DNA of 64,000 nucleotides from Candidatus Binataceae bacterium (GTDB taxonomy: Bacteria; Desulfobacterota; Binatia; Binatales; Binataceae). Below the pieces are notes generated by a model that saw nothing but the letters and a program-made list of their open reading frames with translations, was not told the DNA's origin and did not search any database. Below are positions 42,263-63,922 of the stretch, piece after piece. The stretch spans positions 174,545 to 238,544 of the forward strand of contig DASRHP010000009.1 of assembly GCA_035650475.1 (NCBI GenBank), given 5' to 3'. The position numbers and the translations under genes are program-made. How positions within the stretch are numbered: the first letter of the stretch is position 1; every line of letters begins with the position of its first letter.

Positions 42263-43684
42263 ATGGCCTCAACGCCTGCAATTCCGCGCGTGCTCCTCGC
42301 CGCCACCGGCAGCGGCGCGGGCAAGACTACGGCGGTCATCGCGCTTATCGGGGCGCTGCGCGCGCGCGGGATGCGGGTGGCGGCGTTCAAGTGCGGCCCC
42401 GATTATCTCGATCCGACCTACCATCGCCGCGCCGCCGGCGCGCCCTCGCACAACCTCGACGGTTGGATGATGGGGCGCGAGGCGGTCCTCAGCACCTTTG
42501 CGCGTGCCGCCGACGGCGCCGACATCGCCGTGATCGAGGGCATGATGGGGCTGTTCGACGGCGTCGCGCCCGAGCGCGACGAAGGCTCGACGGCGGAAAT
42601 CGCCAAATGGCTCGACGCGCCGGTGCTGCTGGTCGTGGACGCGTCGGGGATGGCGCGCACGGTGGCGGCGCTCGCCGCCGGCTTCAAACGCTTCGATCCG
42701 CGGCTCAACCTGGCGGGCCTGCTCTGCAACCGCGTCGGCGGTCGCGGCCATCTGGATCTCCTGCGCACGGCGTCAGCCGAGCTGCCGGTGTTGGGCGGCT
42801 TTCCGGCCGAGCCCCGCGCGGCGTTTCCCGAGCGCCATCTCGGACTGCTCAGCGCCGACGACAAGTCGGTTGCGCCGGCGCTGTTCGCGGCGTGGACGGT
42901 GCTTGCCGCCGAGTGGCTCGATCTCGACGCGATCGTCGAGCTCGCGCGCGCCGCGCCGCCGCTTGCGGCCGGCGCGGAGGAGTTATGGCCCCGGCGCGGC
43001 GCCGACGCCCCGCGATGCCGGATCGGCGTGGCCCACGATGCCGCGTTCCATTTCTACTATGAGGACAATCTGCGACGGCTCGAGCTTGCGGGCGCGGAGC
43101 TGGTGCGCTTTGCGCCCACGCGCGATCGCGAGCTGCCGCAAGTCGACGGACTTTACTTCGGCGGCGGCTATCCGGAAGCCTGTGCGCGCGAGCTTTCCGG
43201 CAATCAGGCGATGCTCGACGCGGTGCGCGGCTTTGTGCGGCGCGGCGGGCCAATCTACGCCGAGTGCGGCGGCCTGATGTACCTGGCCGACGCGATCCGC
43301 ACGCTCGACGGCCGACGCTGGCCGATGGCGGGAATCGTCGGCGGCGAGGCCGTGATGGCGGATAGACTCCAGGCGCTGGGCTATGTCGAGGTCGAAACGC
43401 GCGCGGATTCGATCGTCGGACCGGCCGGGATGCGCCTGCGGGGCCATCAGTTCCGTTACTCCACACTTAAGCCAGCCCCGCCGGCGAGGTTCGCGCGCGT
43501 GTACTCGGTGAGCCCGCGATGGGGCGGCGCGACGTTCGACGAAGGCTACCGCACGGGCGGCGTGCTCGCCTCTTACGTGCATGTGCATTGGGCGTCGAAT
43601 CCGCAGGCGGCCGGGCATTTCGTCGATTCCTGCGCGCGCTGGCGTGCGAATCGGATGGGCGAGCACGGAGGCCTGCCCCGCTGA
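42263..43684 (+). CDS. cbiA: cobyrinate a,c-diamide synthase
   Basis: GSGAGKTT P-loop and a C-terminal glutamine amidotransferase-like domain. Confidence 0.85.
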   Translation: MASTPAIPRVLLAATGSGAGKTTAVIALIGALRARGMRVAAFKCGPDYLDPTYHRRAAGAPSHNLDGWMMGREAVLSTFARAADGADIAVIEGMMGLFDGVAPERDEGSTAEIAKWLDAPVLLVVDASGMARTVAALAAGFKRFDPRLNLAGLLCNRVGGRGHLDLLRTASAELPVLGGFPAEPRAAFPERHLGLLSADDKSVAPALFAAWTVLAAEWLDLDAIVELARAAPPLAAGAEELWPRRGADAPRCRIGVAHDAAFHFYYEDNLRRLELAGAELVRFAPTRDRELPQVDGLYFGGGYPEACARELSGNQAMLDAVRGFVRRGGPIYAECGGLMYLADAIRTLDGRRWPMAGIVGGEAVMADRLQALGYVEVETRADSIVGPAGMRLRGHQFRYSTLKPAPPARFARVYSVSPRWGGATFDEGYRTGGVLASYVHVHWASNPQAAGHFVDSCARWRANRMGEHGGLPR

Positions 43685-43745: not shown

Positions 43746-44588
43746 ATGAGCGACTCTCGTTCGGATGACCTCGCACGTCAGTTGGCGCACGCAGTGCCCA
43801 ATACGCTCGAAGGATGGGGCGTGCTCCATCAGATGTTCCGCGTGCGGCGCGACGCGCTCGACGCGGCGTGGCGCGCGCGAGCTGCGCGCGAAGCGGCGGA
43901 CGCGTTCGCTGCGATGGCGCGGCGCGAGGATGGCGAGAGCGCGCTGTTTTCGATCCTCGGCCACAAGGGAGACCTGCTGGCGCTCCATTTCCGCCGCTCC
44001 TTTGACGATCTCGGCCGCGCGCAGGGGGAGGTCGCGGCGCTCGGTCTGAGCGCGATGCTCGAGCAGACGTGGTCGTACGTCTCGATGGTCGAAATCGGAC
44101 TGTACGAGGCGACCGTGGCGCTCAACACGCGGCTTGCGCAGCAGGGCCTGCGGCCGCATTCGCCCGAGTGGAAAATGGCGGTCGAAGAGGAGCTCGCCGC
44201 CCAGCGCCACAAGCTCAGCGAGCGCCTGTGGCCGAAGATTCCCGCGCGCCGCTTTCTATGCTTCTACCCGATGAACAAGCGGCGCAGCGACCCCGACAAC
44301 TGGTACATGCTGCCGATCGACGAGCGCCGCCGCCTGATGCACGAGCACGGGATGATCGGCCGGCGCTACGCCGGTCAGGTAACGCAGATCATCTCGGGCT
44401 CGATCGGCTTTGACGACTGGGAATGGGGCGTCGACCTGTTTGCCGACGACCCGCTGGTATTCAAGAAGCTGGTGTACGAGATGCGCTTCGACGAATCGAG
44501 CGCGCGCTACGCCGAGTTCGGCCCCTTCGTCGTCGCGATCCGCCTGGGCCCCGACGAACTGCCGAAGTTCATTCTCGACCGTTCCTGA
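43746..44588 (+). CDS. chlorite dismutase-family heme enzyme (coproheme decarboxylase HemQ/ChdC-like)
   Basis: Cld/HemQ-family pattern (…FCFYPMNKRR…WYMLP…). Confidence 0.78.
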   Translation: MSDSRSDDLARQLAHAVPNTLEGWGVLHQMFRVRRDALDAAWRARAAREAADAFAAMARREDGESALFSILGHKGDLLALHFRRSFDDLGRAQGEVAALGLSAMLEQTWSYVSMVEIGLYEATVALNTRLAQQGLRPHSPEWKMAVEEELAAQRHKLSERLWPKIPARRFLCFYPMNKRRSDPDNWYMLPIDERRRLMHEHGMIGRRYAGQVTQIISGSIGFDDWEWGVDLFADDPLVFKKLVYEMRFDESSARYAEFGPFVVAIRLGPDELPKFILDRS

Positions 44589-44612
44589 GCCGCTGAAAGT
44601 TGCGGTTGCCGG

Positions 44613-44861
44613 CTACGATTTGGAGGAGGGCGCGCCCGGCTTGAGCGCGGCGAACAGGCCTTCCACCTCGCCCTCGACCGGGAAGCGCCCGCTCCTGGCT
44701 TTGGAGAAGATGAGTTTGCCGTCAACCACGACGTCGAACTGGCCGGTCTTGCCGACCTTGATTTCGGCCTTTTCGCCGAAGCGTTTGCTGAGCGAGGCGG
44801 CCAGACTGGCCGCGCGCGACTTGTAGCCTCAGGCGGAGCAGTAGAAGATCTCGATAGCCAT
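44613..44861 (-). CDS. SelW/SelT/Rdx-family selenoprotein candidate, with an in-frame TGA (Sec) at codon 11 in a CxxU motif
   Basis: Manual minus-strand translation: MAIEIFYCSA-U-GYKSRAASLAASLSKRFGEKAEIKVGKTGQFDVVVDGKLIFSKARSGRFPVEGEVEGLFAALKPGAPSSKS*; TGA at 44829-44831; hairpin GCGGCC-AGUCU-GGCCGC sits 16 nt downstream of the UGA. Confidence 0.6.
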
Positions 44862-44873
44862 AAGCTCAGGCTA

Positions 44874-45437
44874 TCACTTGCTCTCCGGCAGATCGACGAA
44901 GACTGCCGCCGCCACCACCGAGGTCCACAGCCCGTCGCGGTCGCCGATCGCCGACTGGGTCACGTTGCGGGTGGTGACGATCTTGTCCGACACCCGCCAG
45001 ACGTCCTTGCGCTCGTCGTAGCTGGCGTTGGGGTCGAAGTCCACCCCGAGAATCGTCGCCAGCATCATCGCGGCGAGATCCTCGGCGTAGTCGCCCGCCT
45101 TCTGGTCGGTTTCGCCAAAACTATGATGCTCGGAGAGGTAGCCGTAGTGGCTGGGGTTGGCCGGGATTGCGACGCCGACCGAGGCGGCGATGAGGCGATG
45201 CGGCTCGTCGGTCGCGTTATCGCTCATCACGGCGAATACGATCTGCCCCGGCGTCAGCCGCTTGAGACCCTCCTGCGGCGTGATGAGCTTGCAATAGGGC
45301 GGAAAGATCGACTTGACGCGAACGAGGTTGAACTCCGCGATGCCGGCCGAGCGCAGGGCGAGCTCGAACGAGTTCAACTTCTCGCGGTGCTTGCCTACGC
45401 CCTTGGTCAGAAACACACCTTTCGGAAAAGGCCCCAT
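44874..45437 (-). CDS. pdaD: pyruvoyl-dependent arginine decarboxylase
   Basis: PdaD-specific N-terminus [28 protein letters not shown]. Confidence 0.82.
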
Positions 45438-45621
45438 CGCATCTCTCCCGCTTGGACTCCTCCCGGCGTGTCGGGTCGGGGATCAACCGTCAACCTTAGC
45501 AGGAGCCGCCCGCGTGTTACATGGGGGGCGGCGGCTCGCCGCAAGATTTTGACGACGACAGTTAACGATCGCCTAGCGGGCGGTGGGGGTGCCAAAGCAG
45601 CGGGGCCGTTCTCGAACAGCC

Positions 45622-47289
45622 CTACAGCACGTTGACTGGCCGGTATTCGCCGAACACCCGCCGCATCGCGTCCGAGATCTCGCCCAGGGTCGCCCGCTTG
45701 CGCACCGCGTCGATAATCGGCGGCATCAGGTTGCTGCCGTCGCGCGCCGCCCTCTCGACCTTCCCGAGCGCCGCGCGTGCGGCTTCCGCGTCGCGCTCGG
45801 CACGCAGGCGAGCCAGGCGTTCGCGCTGACGCTCCTCGAGCTGCGGGTTGAGGCGGAGAATATCGGTCGGAGGTTCTTCCTCGGCGGTGAATTGGTTGAC
45901 GCCGACGATGATGCGCTGTTTGGTTTCGATTTCGCGCTGGTAGGCGTAGGCCGCCGACTGGATCTCGCGCTGCATGTAGCCGCGCTCGATCGCAGCCACC
46001 GCGCCGCCGAGGTCGTCGATACGGCCCAGGTATTCCGTAGCCTTGGTCTCGAGCTCGCGCGTGAGGGTCTCGAGGAAGTAGGAGCCGCCCAGCGGATCGA
46101 CCGTATCGGCGACGTCGGACTCGTGCGCGATGATCTGCTGGGTGCGCAGCGCGAGCAGGGCCGAGTTCTCAGTCGGCAATGCCAGCGCCTCGTCGCGCGA
46201 GTTGGTGTGGAGCGACTGCGCGCCGCCGAGGACCGCGGCCAGCGCCTGGAGCGTAACCCGCACCACGTTGTTGTCCACCTGCTGCGCCGTCAGCGTCGAG
46301 CCCGCGGTCTGCGCATGGAAGCGCATCATCATCGAGCGCTCGTCGGTGGCGCCGAAGCGCTCTTTCATGATCCGCGCCCACAGCCGGCGCGCTGCGCGGA
46401 ACTTGGCGATCTCCTCGAAGAAGCCGTTGTGGACGTTGAAGAAGAACGACAGCCGGCTGGCGAAGGCGTCCACCTTGAGCCCCGCCTTGATCGCCGCTTC
46501 GACGTAGGCGATGCCGTCGGCGAGGGTGAAGGCGAGCTCCTGGGCGGCGGTCGAGCCGGCCTCGCGGATGTGGTAGCCGGAGATCGAGATCGTGTTCCAG
46601 TTGGGGACTTCGCTGGTCGCGAACTCGAAGATGTCGGTGATAATCCGCATCGAGTCGCGCGGCGGATAGATGTAGGTCCCGCGCGCGACGTACTCCTTGA
46701 GCACGTCGTTCTGGATCGTGCCGTTGAGCTTGTCCCATCCCACCCCGCGCCGCTCGGCCACCGCCAGGTAGAGCGCAAGCAGGATCGCGGCGGTGGCGTT
46801 GATCGTCATCGAGGTCGAGATCTTTTCCAGCGGTAAGGCCTCGAGCAGGGTCTCCATGTCGTCGATCGAGCAGATCGACACGCCCACCCGCCCGACCTCG
46901 CCGCGGGCCAGCGGATGATCCGGGTCGCGGCCCATTTGGGTCGGCAGGTCGAAGGCGACCGACAGCCCGGTCTGCCCATGTTCGAAGAGATAGCGATAGC
47001 GGCGGTTGGACTCCTCCGCGGTGCCGAAGCCCGCGTACTGGCGCATCGTCCACAGCCGCCCGCGGTACATCGTCGGCTGCACGCCGCGGGTGAACGGATA
47101 CTCGCCGGCGAAGCCGAGGTCGCGCAGGTAGTCAAAATCGTCAAGATCGGTGGGGTCGTACTGGCGCTTGATCTCGATGCCCGAGGTGGTGGCGAACTTC
47201 GCGCGCCGCTCGCCGCCGCGCTTGAGCGCGGGCGCGACCTTGCGCTGCTCCCAGGCTTTGCGTGCGTCCTCGATTCCGCCGTTCGACAT
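45622..47289 (-). CDS. methylmalonyl-CoA mutase, large (catalytic) subunit without a fused B12-binding domain
   Basis: 555 aa; MCM N-terminal TIM-barrel signature (…[13 protein letters not shown]…). Confidence 0.9.
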
Positions 47290-47314
47290 AAGCGCCTTGG
47301 CCTCCGATCCGGCG

Positions 47315-47824
47315 CTACTCGATAATCGCCAGGATCTCGCCCTTCTCGACCGTCTGGCCCGCGGTCACCCGCACCTCTACCACCCGTCCGGCCTTGGGCG
47401 TCTTGATCTCGTTCTCCATCTTCATCGCTTCAACGGTCAAGACGCCCTCACCGACTTCGACCTGCTGGTCGGGTTTGACCAGCACGTTGACCACCCGCCC
47501 GGGCATCATCGCCTTGAGTTCGACACGGCCGCTGACCTGGCGGCCGAGACGCGCCTCCACCTGGCGTATCGCGCGCTGGCGCTCGTCAACCAGGGCGACG
47601 CGCCATGCGCCGGCGCGCGAGGCGACGATGAGCTCCTCGCCGTCAGGCGTGACGTCGAAATCGAAGGAGCGGTGGCCAATGAGGACTGAAAACGAACTTG
47701 CGCCGACGCGGCGCAGATCGACCTCGAAGCGCCGCTCGCCCATCCGGACCGCATAGGAATGGGCGCCGAGCTCTTCGAACTCGAAATCGTGCTCCGCACC
47801 CTGCATCGTCGCCAGGTATCGCAT
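47315..47824 (-). CDS. biotin carboxyl carrier protein (biotin/lipoyl attachment domain)
   Basis: EAMKMENEI biotinylation motif; 169 aa from ATG 47824. Confidence 0.8.
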
Positions 47825-47844
47825 GGCTGCCGTCGTCCCTTTCA

Positions 47845-49371
<1,527 letters not shown>

Positions 49372-49505
49372 CGTCTATAGAAACGAGGCGCGCCGCTCCG
49401 AGGCGGAGGGGCCGCTCGTGCTCCAGTCTATCGCGTTCGCGCCGGTGCGGGCGAGGCGGTGCGGCGCCGCACGCATGCCGCCGCGGCTCGAGGTCGCGCC
49501 GCCGC

Positions 49506-51056
<1,551 letters not shown>

Positions 51057-51271
51057 CGTCAGAATTCCGCGCAAGCGAGCATGATACGGGTTGCCGCCCG
51101 CGCCGTGCAAGCGCCGCCCGCCGGCTGTGGGCGTTCGGTTTGCGCCGCTTGCCAGGCGGCAGAAGTGCGCCGCGGCGCCTTGAAATCTTTCCGCCCGAGG
51201 CTGCGGCGTACGATAATAACCCGCCCTGAGGGCTGCCGGTTAAGGAGTGCCCTGACGTGATCGACAACAGG

Positions 51272-51619: not shown

Positions 51620-52129
51620 TCAGTCGGCGGCGCGCGGCTCGAAGCCGACGAAGCGCATCCGGTCGCCCACCTGTACGCGGTGGCGCGCGCAGAAGCCGCC
51701 GTTAACCTCCAGCACGTACTGCGCGTCGGCGTCGGGGCCGACCGATTGCTTGGAGTAGGGTTCGGCGTTGGCGACGATCCCGACGATCTTCCCCGCAGGG
51801 TCGGCGAAGATCATGTCGAGCGGAATCTCGGTGTTCTTCATCCAAAAGCGCAAGCGGCCGGCGGTGGGAAAGACGAACAGCATCCCGGCATCCTCGTCCA
51901 TGTGATTGCGGTACATCAGTCCCAGCTCGCGTTTGGCAGGAGTCAGCGCCAGCTCGACCCGCAACGCCGCGCGCCGGGCGCCGTCGGGAGCGTCGATCAC
52001 CGTTTGGGGATCGCGTGCGCATCCGGCTATCACGGCGGCCATCACGAGCGCAGCGAGCGCGCGCACGACCGGCGCGCGCGGAAGGGCAGTGCGCGCGTCT
52101 TCGGCCATCGGCGGGGCGGCGTCAGCCAA
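51620..52129 (-). CDS. DUF192-domain protein (lipoprotein-like N-terminus)
   Basis: LFVFPTAGRLRFWMKNTEIPLDMIFAD DUF192 core; IAGC lipobox. Confidence 0.7.
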   Translation of the reverse strand: MADAAPPMAEDARTALPRAPVVRALAALVMAAVIAGCARDPQTVIDAPDGARRAALRVELALTPAKRELGLMYRNHMDEDAGMLFVFPTAGRLRFWMKNTEIPLDMIFADPAGKIVGIVANAEPYSKQSVGPDADAQYVLEVNGGFCARHRVQVGDRMRFVGFEPRAAD

Positions 52130-53327
52130 CTTCGAGCGGCAGCGAGGTCAAGCCGCGCAGGAAGAACGATCCCTTGTATCGAAGCGGCGCCTCCGGCGTC
52201 GCGGGCCGGATGCGCTTGAAGCGCTCGAGCAGCGAGCTGATCGCGATCGCGCCTTCCATCCGCGCCAGCGGCGCGCCGAGGCAGAAATGGATGCCTTCGC
52301 CGAAGGCGAGATGGTCGTTGGGCGAGCGTGCGATGTCAAAACGTTCAGGCTCGGGGAACTGCGCGGGGTCGCGGTTGGCCGCCGCCACCAGCACGAAAAT
52401 CATCGTTCCCGCTGGAATCGTCATGCCCGCGAACTCGGTGTCCTGGCGGATGTGCCGCACGGTCGATTGGACCGGGCCGTCGTAGCGCAGCATCTCCTCG
52501 ACCGCCGACGCCGCCAGCCCGGGTTCGCGGCGCAGGCGTTCGAGCTCGCCCGGATGGCGCGTCAGGGCGAGCATCCCGTTGCCGATCAGATTGGTCGTGG
52601 TTTCATTGCCGGCGAGCAGCAGGATGACCACGAAGGCGATCAGTTCCTCTTCGCTCAGGGTTTCCTCGGAGTCCTCGTGCGCGGCGACCAGCACGCTGAC
52701 GAGGTCGTCGCCCGGGCTGCGCCTGCGCTTTTCGATCTCGGCGACGAAGTAGGCGCGCAGTGCGGCGAAGGCCTCGCGCACCTCCTGCGGCAGCGGCATC
52801 CCGGGTGGCGTGTTGTCGGACTCGATGACCGTGTCCGACCATCGCTTGAACATCGGGTAATGCTCGGGCGGCACCCCCAGCATGTGTGCGATCACCATCA
52901 CCGGCAGCGGATTGGCGAGGTCGGCCATCACGTCGAGTCCGCCGCGCGCGGCGGCGCGGTTGAGCAGCGAGTTGGTGAATTCGCGGATTTTCGGTTCCAG
53001 CTCGCGGATGCGCCGCGGGGTGAAGGCGCGGCTCACCAGGCGGCGCAGGCGGGTGTGGATCGGGGGGTCGGAAAAGACCACGCGCGGCGCGTTGCCGAAG
53101 ACGCTGATCCGCTCTTCGATCAGCGGACTGCGCGGCGGCACGCTGGAGAAATGCTCATGGTCGCGCAGGATCGCGCTGCAATCGGCGTAGCGCGCGACCA
53201 ACGCCATCGGCACGAACACGTTAAGCAGCCGCGGCGGCCCCTGAAACAGCGGTCGGTAGTACGGGTATGGATTGGCGCGGAACGCTTCGTCCCACGGGTT
53301 GAAGTAGATTTCGCCGGCTTCGCTCAT
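52122..53327 (-). CDS. cytochrome P450
   Basis: FGEGIHFCLGAPLAR heme-thiolate loop; EELIAFVVILLLAGNETT I-helix; ATG at MSEAGEIYFNPWDE. Confidence 0.88.
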   Translation of the reverse strand: MSEAGEIYFNPWDEAFRANPYPYYRPLFQGPPRLLNVFVPMALVARYADCSAILRDHEHFSSVPPRSPLIEERISVFGNAPRVVFSDPPIHTRLRRLVSRAFTPRRIRELEPKIREFTNSLLNRAAARGGLDVMADLANPLPVMVIAHMLGVPPEHYPMFKRWSDTVIESDNTPPGMPLPQEVREAFAALRAYFVAEIEKRRRSPGDDLVSVLVAAHEDSEETLSEEELIAFVVILLLAGNETTTNLIGNGMLALTRHPGELERLRREPGLAASAVEEMLRYDGPVQSTVRHIRQDTEFAGMTIPAGTMIFVLVAAANRDPAQFPEPERFDIARSPNDHLAFGEGIHFCLGAPLARMEGAIAISSLLERFKRIRPATPEAPLRYKGSFFLRGLTSLPLEVG

Positions 53328-53450
53328 CGCAGGGCCACCGCCTCCGCGTGTCCAGAAGGGACGTGCCCGTATGTTAGCCCGCCCGGCGGCGGCAAATACA
53401 GCGGGGAGCGCGGCGAGCCGGACCCGCTCCATGTCGCGGACGATCCGCCG

Positions 53451-54269
53451 TCAGCGGCCCATGAAACGGGGTCGGCGCTTTTCGAGGAACGCGCGCACGC
53501 CCTCGCGGTAGTCCTCGCTATCGTAGCAGCGCGAGACCAGCTCGGCGACAAGCCCGAGGTCGCGCTCGGCGGCGTCCTTGAGTCCCTCGCGGACAGCGGC
53601 CTTCGCCGCCGCCATCGTGAGCGGCGCATTGGACGCCATCCGGGTCGCGTACTCGCGCACGTAGGGCTCCAGCTCTTCCGGCCCGACAACCTTGTTGACC
53701 AAGCCCATCGCGTACGCCTCGTCGGCGTCGAAAATCCGCGCCGACATCAGGATGTCGCGCGCGTTGGCTGGCCCACAGACCTGCGCGAGCGCCATCACGC
53801 CGTCCAGCGGATAGGCAAGACCGAGCCGCGCGGCCGGGATTCCCATCTTCGTGCCGCGCGCGGCGATCCGGATGTCGCACGAGAGTGCAACCTGGACGCC
53901 GCCGCCGATGCAGATGCCGGCGATCATCGCGATTACCGGCTTGGGGCAGTTGAGCAGCGCGTTGGTGGCATTACCTGGAGCGTCGCGATAGATGCGCGCC
54001 TGCTCGGCGTTGGCGCGCAGGCTCGGAAACTCCGAGATGTCGGCGCCGGAGATGAAGGCCTCGGGGGTCGCCCCGCGCATCACGATCACGCGCACGTCAG
54101 GATCGTCCCGGAGCTCCGCCACGCCCTTGACGATGAGCTGCCAGGTGCGCAGGTTGAGCGCGTTGCGCACCTGCGGGCGGTTGATGATGAGCCAGCCGAG
54201 CGGCGCCTCGCGACGCACCAGCAGCGGCTCGGCCTCCTGTGCGTTGACGTTCACATCCTGTGTGGCCAT
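53451..54269 (-). CDS. enoyl-CoA hydratase/isomerase (crotonase) family
   Basis: 272 aa from ATG 54269; crotonase oxyanion-hole region (…FISGADISEF…GICIGGG…); the upstream part of the listed 538-aa ORF is antisense to the next gene. Confidence 0.85.
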   Translation of the reverse strand: MATQDVNVNAQEAEPLLVRREAPLGWLIINRPQVRNALNLRTWQLIVKGVAELRDDPDVRVIVMRGATPEAFISGADISEFPSLRANAEQARIYRDAPGNATNALLNCPKPVIAMIAGICIGGGVQVALSCDIRIAARGTKMGIPAARLGLAYPLDGVMALAQVCGPANARDILMSARIFDADEAYAMGLVNKVVGPEELEPYVREYATRMASNAPLTMAAAKAAVREGLKDAAERDLGLVAELVSRCYDSEDYREGVRAFLEKRRPRFMGR

Positions 54270-54307
54270 CGCTTCGACGCTCCTGGCTTTCGGTTTGCGC
54301 CTCGCGT

Positions 54308-55171
54308 TCACAACCTGGCGAGCACTTCGTTGGCGAGCTTGTCGAGCCCGCGCGTCAGGCCCTCGGCATCGAAGGCCGGCGGCGCGATTACGAGGCGCGA
54401 CACGCCGATATCCTGGAGCTGCCTGACCGTATCGAGGTTGGCGCGGCCGCCGCTGGAAAGCTCGATCGTCGCGGGGTCGCGGCCAGCCTGCTGCGCCTCC
54501 ACGCGCATGATCGCGAATAGCTCCTTGAGCTTTTCGATGTCGCCGATCGCGGGGAAGAAACCGTCGCCGAGGCGGCCGGCGCGGCGCGCGGCGGCCGGCG
54601 AGTGGCCGCCGATATGGATCGGTACGCCGCCCGATTGCGCCGGCTTCGGAAAGCTCTTCACTTCGCGGAAAGCGAAGTGTTTGCCGTGGAAGGTCGAAGT
54701 GGCGTCGCGCCACAACGTGCGCAGCGCCGCGATCGCCTCGTCGGTGCGCCTGCCGCGCTGACGGAAATCCAGGCCCAGCGCGTCGAACTCCTCCTTGAGC
54801 CAGCCGCTGCCGATGCCCAGGATCACGCGCCCGCGCGAGAGCACGTCGAGCGTGGCGACCTCCTTGGCGGTGTAGAGCGGATGGCGCTGGGGCAGGATCA
54901 GGATGCCGGTGGCGAGGCGGATGCGGCTGGTGACCGCGGCGGCGTAGGCGAGCGGAAGCAGCGGGTCGGGGATCGCAACGTCCTCGCCGCCGGGAATCTT
55001 GCCGTCGCGCGAGTACGGATAGGGGGTTTGGTAGTTGTGCGGGATGACGACGTGCTCGACCGTCCACAGCGACTCGAAGCCACGCTCCTCAGCGCTTGTG
55101 GCCAAATGGGCCAGCAGCTCGGGATTGGCGAACGGCCCCGCATTGGCGAACATCAGCCCCAGCTTCATCAT
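54308..55171 (-). CDS. LLM-class F420/flavin-dependent oxidoreductase
   Basis: Luciferase-like signature (LWTVEHVVIP…GIGSGW). Confidence 0.8.
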   Translation of the reverse strand: MMKLGLMFANAGPFANPELLAHLATSAEERGFESLWTVEHVVIPHNYQTPYPYSRDGKIPGGEDVAIPDPLLPLAYAAAVTSRIRLATGILILPQRHPLYTAKEVATLDVLSRGRVILGIGSGWLKEEFDALGLDFRQRGRRTDEAIAALRTLWRDATSTFHGKHFAFREVKSFPKPAQSGGVPIHIGGHSPAAARRAGRLGDGFFPAIGDIEKLKELFAIMRVEAQQAGRDPATIELSSGGRANLDTVRQLQDIGVSRLVIAPPAFDAEGLTRGLDKLANEVLARL

Positions 55172-60918: not shown

Positions 60919-63753
<2,835 letters not shown>

Positions 63754-63922
63754 CTCCTCCACCTCCCCGGCTGCCCTGCGCCTCGGCTGGAACGCAAATT
63801 ACTCCGGTTCGTGGTTGTGTCAAGGACCACACCCCAAGATATTGTATAGGATAACTTGTGGACAACCTATAGAAAGGGCTGTTAGTAAGTCTTCGTACTA
63901 ATTTCGCCTCTATAGGAATGCC

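Follow-up and report, generated by a model that had tools for sequence, protein, structure and literature searches.

Bacterial SelW-like proteins are an established selenoprotein family with a CXXU motif (PMC1088965; PMC1794560). They have been recognised in bacteria since about 2005, the time of the first prokaryotic selenoproteome surveys, and are represented by their own Pfam and NCBIfam models. In the Sargasso Sea data, SelW-like was the most abundant selenoprotein family, with 48 genes, and its function was considered unclear, the CXXU motif suggesting a redox role (PMC1088965). Members are small single-domain proteins with an N-terminal CxxU motif, encoded by genes with an in-frame TGA and a selenocysteine insertion sequence (SECIS) hairpin which lies within the coding region and has a G in the apical loop (PMC1088965; PMC1794560; TIGR02174; PF10262). 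Here, we analyse a gene of this type found in a stretch of 64,000 nucleotides (hereafter, the window) from the contig DASRHP010000009.1 (positions 174,545 to 238,544) of a Candidatus Binataceae bacterium. All positions given below refer to the window, and the gene (44613..44861) is on its minus strand. Very probably, the locus represents a functional gene for an 82-residue SelW-like selenoprotein of the Rdx (SelT/SelW/SelH) thioredoxin-like family in a Binatia-type bacterium. Compared with the described bacterial SelW-like selenoproteins, the window copy displays nothing different in kind, except that the basic C-terminal tail seen in its nearest relatives is missing. Neither its Binatia host nor its position after the arginine decarboxylase gene pdaD is mentioned in the two surveys (PMC1088965; PMC1794560), and a literature search for Binatia or Binatota together with selenocysteine found nothing relevant.

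The gene comprises 82 codons followed by TAG, with the putative selenocysteine (Sec) at codon 11. The frame beginning with ATG at 44861-44859 translates to MAIEIFYCSA-TGA-GYKSRAASLAASLSKRFGEKAEIKVGKTGQFDVVVDGKLIFSKARSGRFPVEGEVEGLFAALKPGAPSSKS-TAG, with 71 sense codons between TGA and the stop at 44615-44613. The protein was compared with profiles after U had been replaced by C. It scored 63.2 bits with the Pfam Rdx model PF10262 (cut-off 22.6, E = 2.7e-17, residues 3-66) and 56.1 bits with NCBIfam TIGR02174, CXXU_selWTH (cut-off 34.2). With both cut-offs exceeded and the N-terminal CxxU motif aligned with that of characterised members, it can be assigned to the Rdx family. The top-scoring NCBIfam model was NF041051 (SelTWH_Campy). 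Although nearly the whole model is matched (positions 1-68 of 70), the score of 75 bits is under the equivalog cut-off of 88 bits, and the protein is therefore placed outside that subfamily and filed in the broader family only. Among solved structures, matches include human MIEN1/C17orf37 (2LJK, E = 6e-10), mouse SelW (2NPB) and Agrobacterium Atu0228 (2FA8), as well as four further bacterial Rdx proteins (2P0G, 2OKA, 2OBK and 3DEX). Mammalian SelW, MIEN1 and the bacterial Cys-form Rdx proteins are homologous to the window protein over residues 1-75 or 3-66, and their redox motifs align residue for residue. C8-S-A-U11 corresponds to C-E-P-C in 2LJK and to C-T-Q-C in 2FA8, U11 being aligned with the second Cys of each, and in the chain of 2NPB S-G-A-C is found there, its Cys falling on the TGA codon. 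MIEN1 and the solved bacterial Rdx proteins have Cys where the window protein has Sec. The in-frame TGA (44829..44831, minus strand), the putative codon for U11, is invariant in relatives and, in solved Rdx proteins, is matched by the second Cys of CxxC. Cys8 (TGC, 44838..44840, minus strand), the first residue of the CxxU motif and the probable resolving cysteine, is conserved; in 2LJK and 2FA8, its counterpart is the first Cys of CxxC. Homology to the solved structures suggests that the protein adopts a thioredoxin-like alpha/beta fold.

The first-pass annotation of the window, made from the sequence alone, had proposed this open reading frame (ORF), assigned it to the Rdx/SelW family and placed the TGA exactly at the U of CxxU. 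Translation reproduced its coordinates and description, the PF10262 and TIGR02174 scores together with the solved homologues support the family, and the alignments of orthologs and solved structures bear out the position of the TGA. It had also expected ORF finders to split or miss the gene. Indeed, the gene is not among the window ORFs of at least 40 aa, and in public gene calls for the same contig region it is either uncalled (ENA) or reduced to a 38-aa fragment (JGI 3300045256). The region is carried by a JGI metagenome contig of 65.8 kb and by an ENA contig of 763.9 kb (ERZ27279688 k141_2873558). Standard gene finders miss it because the selenocysteine codon resembles a stop codon.

A scan of species-representative genomes returned 24 related loci (designated by L-numbers), 23 of which are full-length, the remaining one being L021. 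According to the record titles, they originate from Binataceae, 'uncultured delta proteobacterium' metagenome-assembled genomes (MAGs), Eisenbacteria, Polyangia/Myxococcales, Gaiellaceae, Betaproteobacteria/Burkholderiaceae, Planctomycetota and Thermoanaerobaculia (Acidobacteriota). Loci from Binataceae and the 'uncultured delta proteobacterium' MAGs share 65-76% identity with the window protein, and the nearest named relatives are Binataceae, of the phylum Candidatus Binatota. The first-pass annotation had suggested an alignment of relatives over the TGA as a test of the selenoprotein assignment, and the relatives do continue across it. All 23 full-length loci have a start at the same distance (ATG, or GTG in L014), the motif [YHF]-C-x-x, TGA at the same codon and in-frame protein conservation beyond it. 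Counting L021, TGA occupies this codon in 24/24 related loci, and Cys forms are found among more distant relatives. In the alignment of 24 sequences, to which the TGA of L021 is additional, T10, G11 and A12 are invariant and the Cys8 codon is TGC or TGT in 23, with TGA in L023. Furthermore, the column entropy of codons 2-10, summed over positions 1, 2 and 3, is 7.8, 7.7 and 10.8, respectively, that is, variation is mainly at the third position. Variability is far higher in the 27 nt preceding the ATG (16.1, 16.6 and 15.1), where no codon periodicity is seen. The third-position variability of the nine codons between ATG and TGA therefore indicates that the segment 5' of the TGA is translated.

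In the consensus model of bacterial SECIS elements implemented in bSECISearch, as summarised in a 2026 review (PMC13188914, Fig. 2), the apical loop has 3-9 nt and the stem 4-16 bp, a G is found in the first two loop positions, usually as N1-G-[G/U]-N-N2 with N1 and N2 paired, the distance from UGA to the loop is 16-37 nt and the minimum free energy is -7.5 kcal/mol or lower. The window contains a hairpin of this type (44797..44813, minus strand), consisting of the 5' arm GCGGCCA (44813-44807), a GUC loop (44806-44804) and the 3' arm UGGCCGC (44803-44797). It had been noticed in the first-pass annotation as GCGGCC-AGUCU-GGCCGC, sixteen nucleotides past the UGA and with SECIS-like geometry and spacing, and it is present exactly there: after a 15-nt spacer the stem begins at the 16th nucleotide. 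In the RNAfold prediction, an A-U closing pair yields a stem of 7 bp with a GUC loop (6 bp with AGUCU if that pair is left open). The loop sequence A-G-U-C-U, with A and U paired, has G followed by U, the loop starts 22 nt from the UGA and the energy of the 17-nt hairpin is -12.0 kcal/mol. Thus, the element fits all four published constraints, and does so in minimal form, with a perfect GC-rich stem of 7 bp and a 3-nt loop. The SECIS of E. coli fdhF has a bulged U; no such bulge is seen in the window hairpin. In the eukaryotic SelW gene, the SECIS is of another type and resides in the 3' untranslated region (PMC1088965), whereas the window element lies within the coding sequence.

The hairpin is conserved together with the TGA. 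A perfect stem passing the bacterial SECIS model was found in 21/24 sequences, with 21-25 nt between UGA and loop in these 21 loci. The exceptions are L002 and L004, with one internal mismatch each, and L015, which has a different hairpin with a longer loop. In the 24-sequence alignment, 97% of the cells in the seven pairs form standard pairs, compared with 33-57% after shifting the 3' partners by 1-3 columns, and RNAalifold predicts the identical helix. Double-sided compensatory cells number 21, against 8.4 +/- 1.8 in column shuffles (0/500 reach 21), although such counts overstate the independent events, since the aligned sequences are related; roughly four to five independent switches are represented. 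Columns 33-45 are paired in 24/24 sequences (GC in 15, CG in 7, UA and GU in one each), and so are columns 36-42 (CG in 12, GC in 11 and AU in one). Both covarying pairs join third positions of Ala and Leu codons, and therefore synonymous sites are held complementary. Moreover, the G and U of the loop (44804-44806 in the window, columns 37-39) are invariant in 24/24 sequences even though the codon is AGT, GGT or CGT (Ser, Gly or Arg), and the third-position T of this codon is retained against a GC content at third positions (GC3) of ~0.85. The conserved loop GU is a clear example of selection at the RNA level prevailing over codon preference. These patterns amount to good comparative evidence that a functional RNA element occupies the SECIS position, and SelB would be expected to bind to it.

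To see how relatives of the gene are represented in databases, the exact post-TGA segment (71 residues) was searched against 1.84 billion cluster representatives and the best 150 were classified (P-numbers). These comprise 115 N-truncated calls, 14 full-length 'CxxW' proteins, 17 true CxxC forms and 4 unrelated long repeat proteins. In the 'CxxW' proteins (P0039, P0041, P0045, P0064, P0065, P0067, P0073, P0081, P0088, P0095, P0123, P0153, P0161 and P0169), TGA was presumably rendered as Trp by pipelines using genetic code 4 or 25. The closest CxxC form among the best 150 is P0030, with 56% identity. Sec forms thus dominate among close relatives and Cys forms are a minority, consistent with the pattern reported for SelW-like proteins (PMC1794560). 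The idea that the conserved 'RAASLAA' peptide is dictated solely by the RNA hairpin was weighed and set aside, as the Cys-form relatives P0042, P0063 and P0130 retain the motif; its conservation may also be a protein-level feature or reflect recent Sec-to-Cys conversion. The four long proteins, P0029 (4971 aa), P0033 (3686 aa), P0036 (1493 aa) and P0040 (908 aa), match post-TGA query residues ~17-63 through 6-20 repeated stretches each (e.g. query residues 19-39, KAEIKVGKTGQFDVVVDGKLI). Their E-values, down to 1e-16, derive from scores summed over many repeats, and the matches probably reflect an unrelated repeated beta-strand motif.

Collectively, these observations suggest the following scheme. 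Translation would start at ATG 44861, and the UGA at codon 11 would be decoded as selenocysteine and not as a stop, as conservation and geometry imply. The mRNA hairpin at 44813-44797, located 22 nt past the UGA and displaying the invariant loop GU, would serve as the bacterial SECIS element and bring SelB, loaded with GTP and Sec-tRNA(Sec), to the ribosome. The product would most likely be a thiol/selenol oxidoreductase with a Cys8-x-x-Sec11 redox centre. By analogy with the family, Sec11 would attack as the nucleophile, with Cys8 resolving the intermediate via a selenenylsulfide. Comparison of the related sequences speaks directly for the translated N-terminal segment, the conserved TGA at the redox position and the covarying hairpin at SECIS distance.

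Several observations weigh against this scheme. No recognisable Shine-Dalgarno sequence was seen at the usual distance before ATG 44861. The fold z-score of the hairpin relative to shuffled sequences is only -1.96, so by itself the hairpin is not beyond chance. Indeed, in the window, with its 67% GC, 189/1421 TGA trinucleotides (13.3%) are followed by a model-passing hairpin and 42/1421 (3.0%) by one at least as stable, and 11/1421 (0.8%) combine such stability with a G[G/U] loop start. Since model-passing hairpins are common in such a GC-rich window, the case rests on homology and on the fact that TGA, frame and hairpin are conserved in 24/24 loci. The redox mechanism and the partner proteins are extrapolated from the family alone. 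Finally, the genes required for Sec decoding (selA, selB, selD and, for tRNA-Sec, selC) were found neither in the window nor in the ~6.9 and 5.5 kb of flanking sequence on the source contig or the 24 related loci. A tblastn search of the window and the 24 related loci with E. coli SelA, SelB and SelD returned nothing at E <= 1e-3, and Pfam labels on public calls in the flanks beyond both window ends (6.9 and 5.5 kb) include no sel-type domains. ARAGORN found no tRNA at all in the window and 27 loci, and an Rfam scan of the whole window gave no hits, hence no tRNA-Sec. To our knowledge, Rfam has no bacterial SECIS family, so that the missing SECIS hit says little. The searched sequence amounts to <2% of a genome, and the absence of sel genes is therefore uninformative rather than negative. 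When the window was scanned for further read-through TGAs of coding appearance, only same-frame adjacent genes and antisense shadow frames emerged, and no second selenoprotein candidate.

Among the alternative explanations, the one that fares best is that the gene is of the Sec type by descent but its lineage has lost the Sec machinery, in which case translation would stop at codon 11 and the gene would be decaying. Such a relic would agree with the lack of sel genes and tRNA-Sec in the reachable sequence (window, flanks and related loci), with the frequent loss of selenoproteins in bacteria (PMC1794560) and with the loss, in the window protein, of the basic C-terminal tail kept by its closest relatives. 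However, the gene retains an intact start, Cys8 codon, TGA, hairpin and downstream frame, and its Rdx domain (residues 3-66) is complete. Furthermore, the product of the neighbouring gene is identical in several independent metagenome assemblies and all eight Binatia-like relatives retain the intact arrangement. A decaying relic is thus improbable.

A downstream start, with the gene beginning past the TGA as gene callers annotate it (38-aa or 'LAASL...' products) and the preceding 33 nt forming an untranslated leader, is less probable still. Database annotation would seem to favour it, as 27/27 close database proteins and the 115 N-truncated calls among the 150 representatives begin after the TGA, as does the 38-aa JGI fragment. 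Yet these truncated calls begin at whichever CTG, TTG, GTG or ATG is first, whereas alignment with the profile, as with the solved structures, begins at residue 3 and takes in the region of the first beta-strand and the redox motif. In 24 loci, the ATG and the pattern M-x-[IV]-x-I-x-[YH]-C-x-x keep a constant spacing and show third-position variation of the coding type, and a product without CxxU would lack the active site of the family.

Equally remote is the explanation that TGA is read as a standard amino acid (Trp or Gly), owing to a reassigned code or general read-through, which the W displayed by 14 representatives at this position in public translations might suggest. TGA is the commonest stop in the window and ends 24/46 confident ORFs, pdaD among them; being an ordinary stop here, it rules against any reassignment of the genetic code. 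Moreover, the codon specifies the catalytic redox residue, at which only Cys or Sec occurs in the family, and it is followed at the required distance by the conserved, covarying SECIS-type hairpin. Least likely is a nonsense mutation or sequencing error in a CxxC gene, yielding a pseudogene or an artefact, for although TGC differs from TGA by one base and Cys forms do exist (17/150 representatives; P0030 at 56% identity), TGA is found in 24/24 independent loci from several phyla and the downstream frame shows no decay. Even together, the four alternatives account for a small part of the probability, and each is contradicted by evidence; we thus favour a functional SelW-like selenoprotein gene.

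Some relatives of the gene depart from the common pattern. In L021 (3300-3534; Burkholderiaceae MAG JBGTEW010000267.1), the sequence MAILVLYCAV-TGA-NYKPEALRVKAW... is followed by a frameshift ahead of the conserved ...GQFDVVVDG..., and this copy represents a pseudogene in decay or else a misassembly. L023 (6001-6040; Planctomycetota MAG DASVAL010000139.1) reads CAC TGA ACC GCT TGA GGC, where TGA occupies the Cys as well as the Sec position; in its sister L018, the first of these is TGC. Similarly, in P0123 ('EYWGMWNY') both motif positions are W, as expected if TGA is rendered as Trp. In the double-TGA variant, the distances of one hairpin from the two UGAs would be 31 nt and 22 nt, each within the model range of 16-37 nt. 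Judging from these sequences, some SelW-like relatives (L023 and P0123, not the window gene) may be UxxU proteins in which two Sec residues are served by one SECIS hairpin, but the double TGA of L023 could equally be a sequencing error or mark a pseudogene. As for the C-terminus, the window protein ends with ...KPGAPSSKS (44613-44640), without the 20-30-residue extension of the closest relatives (L001-L003, L007 and P0001-P0016), which finishes in the basic motif ...GGRAGVLRRLSDKFRN.

The SelW-like gene is the last on its strand in a series of minus-strand genes. Directly upstream is pdaD (44874..45437, TGA stop), encoding a pyruvoyl-dependent arginine decarboxylase (TIGR00286, 131 bits against a cut-off of 107; Pfam PvlArgDC). 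Further upstream is a cluster (45622..51110) of acyl-CoA carboxylase (propionyl-CoA carboxylase-type) and mutase genes, identified by NCBIfam and Pfam labels: the methylmalonyl-CoA mutase large subunit (45622-47289), a biotin carboxyl carrier protein (47315 to about 47824), a biotin carboxylase (47845-49371) and a carboxyltransferase (49506-51110). From the carboxyltransferase to the SelW-like gene, the gaps are, in order, 134, 14, 25, 184 (mutase to pdaD) and 12 nt (pdaD to the SelW-like gene). Given the 12-nt gap, the SelW-like gene is probably co-transcribed with at least pdaD. On the opposite side lies a convergent gene of the chlorite dismutase family (43746..44588, plus strand; coordinates mapped from L027), which encodes a HemQ/ChdC-like heme synthase (NF008913, 296 bits against a cut-off of 253; Pfam Chlor_dismutase). 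Its stop is 24 nt from that of the SelW-like gene, and the transcription unit is therefore bounded there; in L001, the corresponding distance is ~580 nt. A scan of 44300-45800 for promoter and terminator consensus sequences found none. The gene order is common to seven Binatia-like relatives: pdaD is directly upstream of the SelW-like gene in L001, L002, L004, L006, L007 and L008, and ~1.1 kb upstream in L003 (complete chromosome OY970324.1). The first-pass annotation had described the gene as the last of a methylmalonyl-CoA/pdaD operon. Its last place on the strand and the order kept in relatives stand, while an operon with pdaD and the upstream genes is a reasonable inference from spacing and synteny, with the 184-nt gap between mutase and pdaD as a caveat.

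Outside Binatia, the neighbours (M16 peptidase, Lon, RF-2-like, OmpA, B12-radical SAM and MBOAT) include no recurrent partner, and the linkage with pdaD is therefore lineage-specific. It is conceivable, although doubtful, that the SelW-like protein of Binatia serves specifically as partner to PdaD or to the adjacent propionate/methylmalonyl-CoA module, in which case the tight spacing of pdaD and the SelW-like gene (12 nt in the window) and the gene order conserved in eight genomes would be due to a specific redox role. If true, a bacterial SelW-like protein would for the first time have a physiological context. In L012 (4999-6198; 'uncultured delta proteobacterium' MAG CAWDXG010000004.1), the SelW-like gene directly follows a same-strand gene whose product has PCRF and RF-1 domains; this release-factor-type neighbour is probably a coincidence.

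Elsewhere in the window, several cobalamin-related genes are found around the locus (regions 42263-43684, 45622-47289 and 60919-63762), namely those for CobB (cobyrinic acid a,c-diamide synthase), the B12-dependent methylmalonyl-CoA mutase at 45622-47289 and a class II ribonucleotide reductase. The class II (B12-dependent) ribonucleotide reductase is a putative assignment based on Pfam labels and reading by eye. The window is also rich in genes for luciferase-like (F420/FMN-type) oxidoreductases and family III CoA-transferases. A plus-strand ORF of 951 codons (51906-54761) was rejected as a gene: it is an antisense shadow of minus-strand genes publicly called as DUF192, cytochrome P450, enoyl-CoA hydratase and luciferase-like monooxygenase.

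Overall, the locus is a genuine, previously miscalled member of a well-known family in an uncultured lineage, and its novelty is low. It leaves the understanding of Sec decoding and of the Rdx family unchanged, and its scientific value is modest, residing mainly in annotation quality and in the implied use of Sec in Binatia. For the subfamily, it provides a clear example of a systematic annotation error hiding selenoproteins, either through truncation after the TGA or through Trp at the Sec position, and the covariation at synonymous sites makes the subfamily a good training and benchmark case for predictors of bacterial SECIS elements. For the uncultured Binatia/Binatota, it supplies a correctly delimited selenoprotein gene, which implies that the lineage decodes UGA as selenocysteine.

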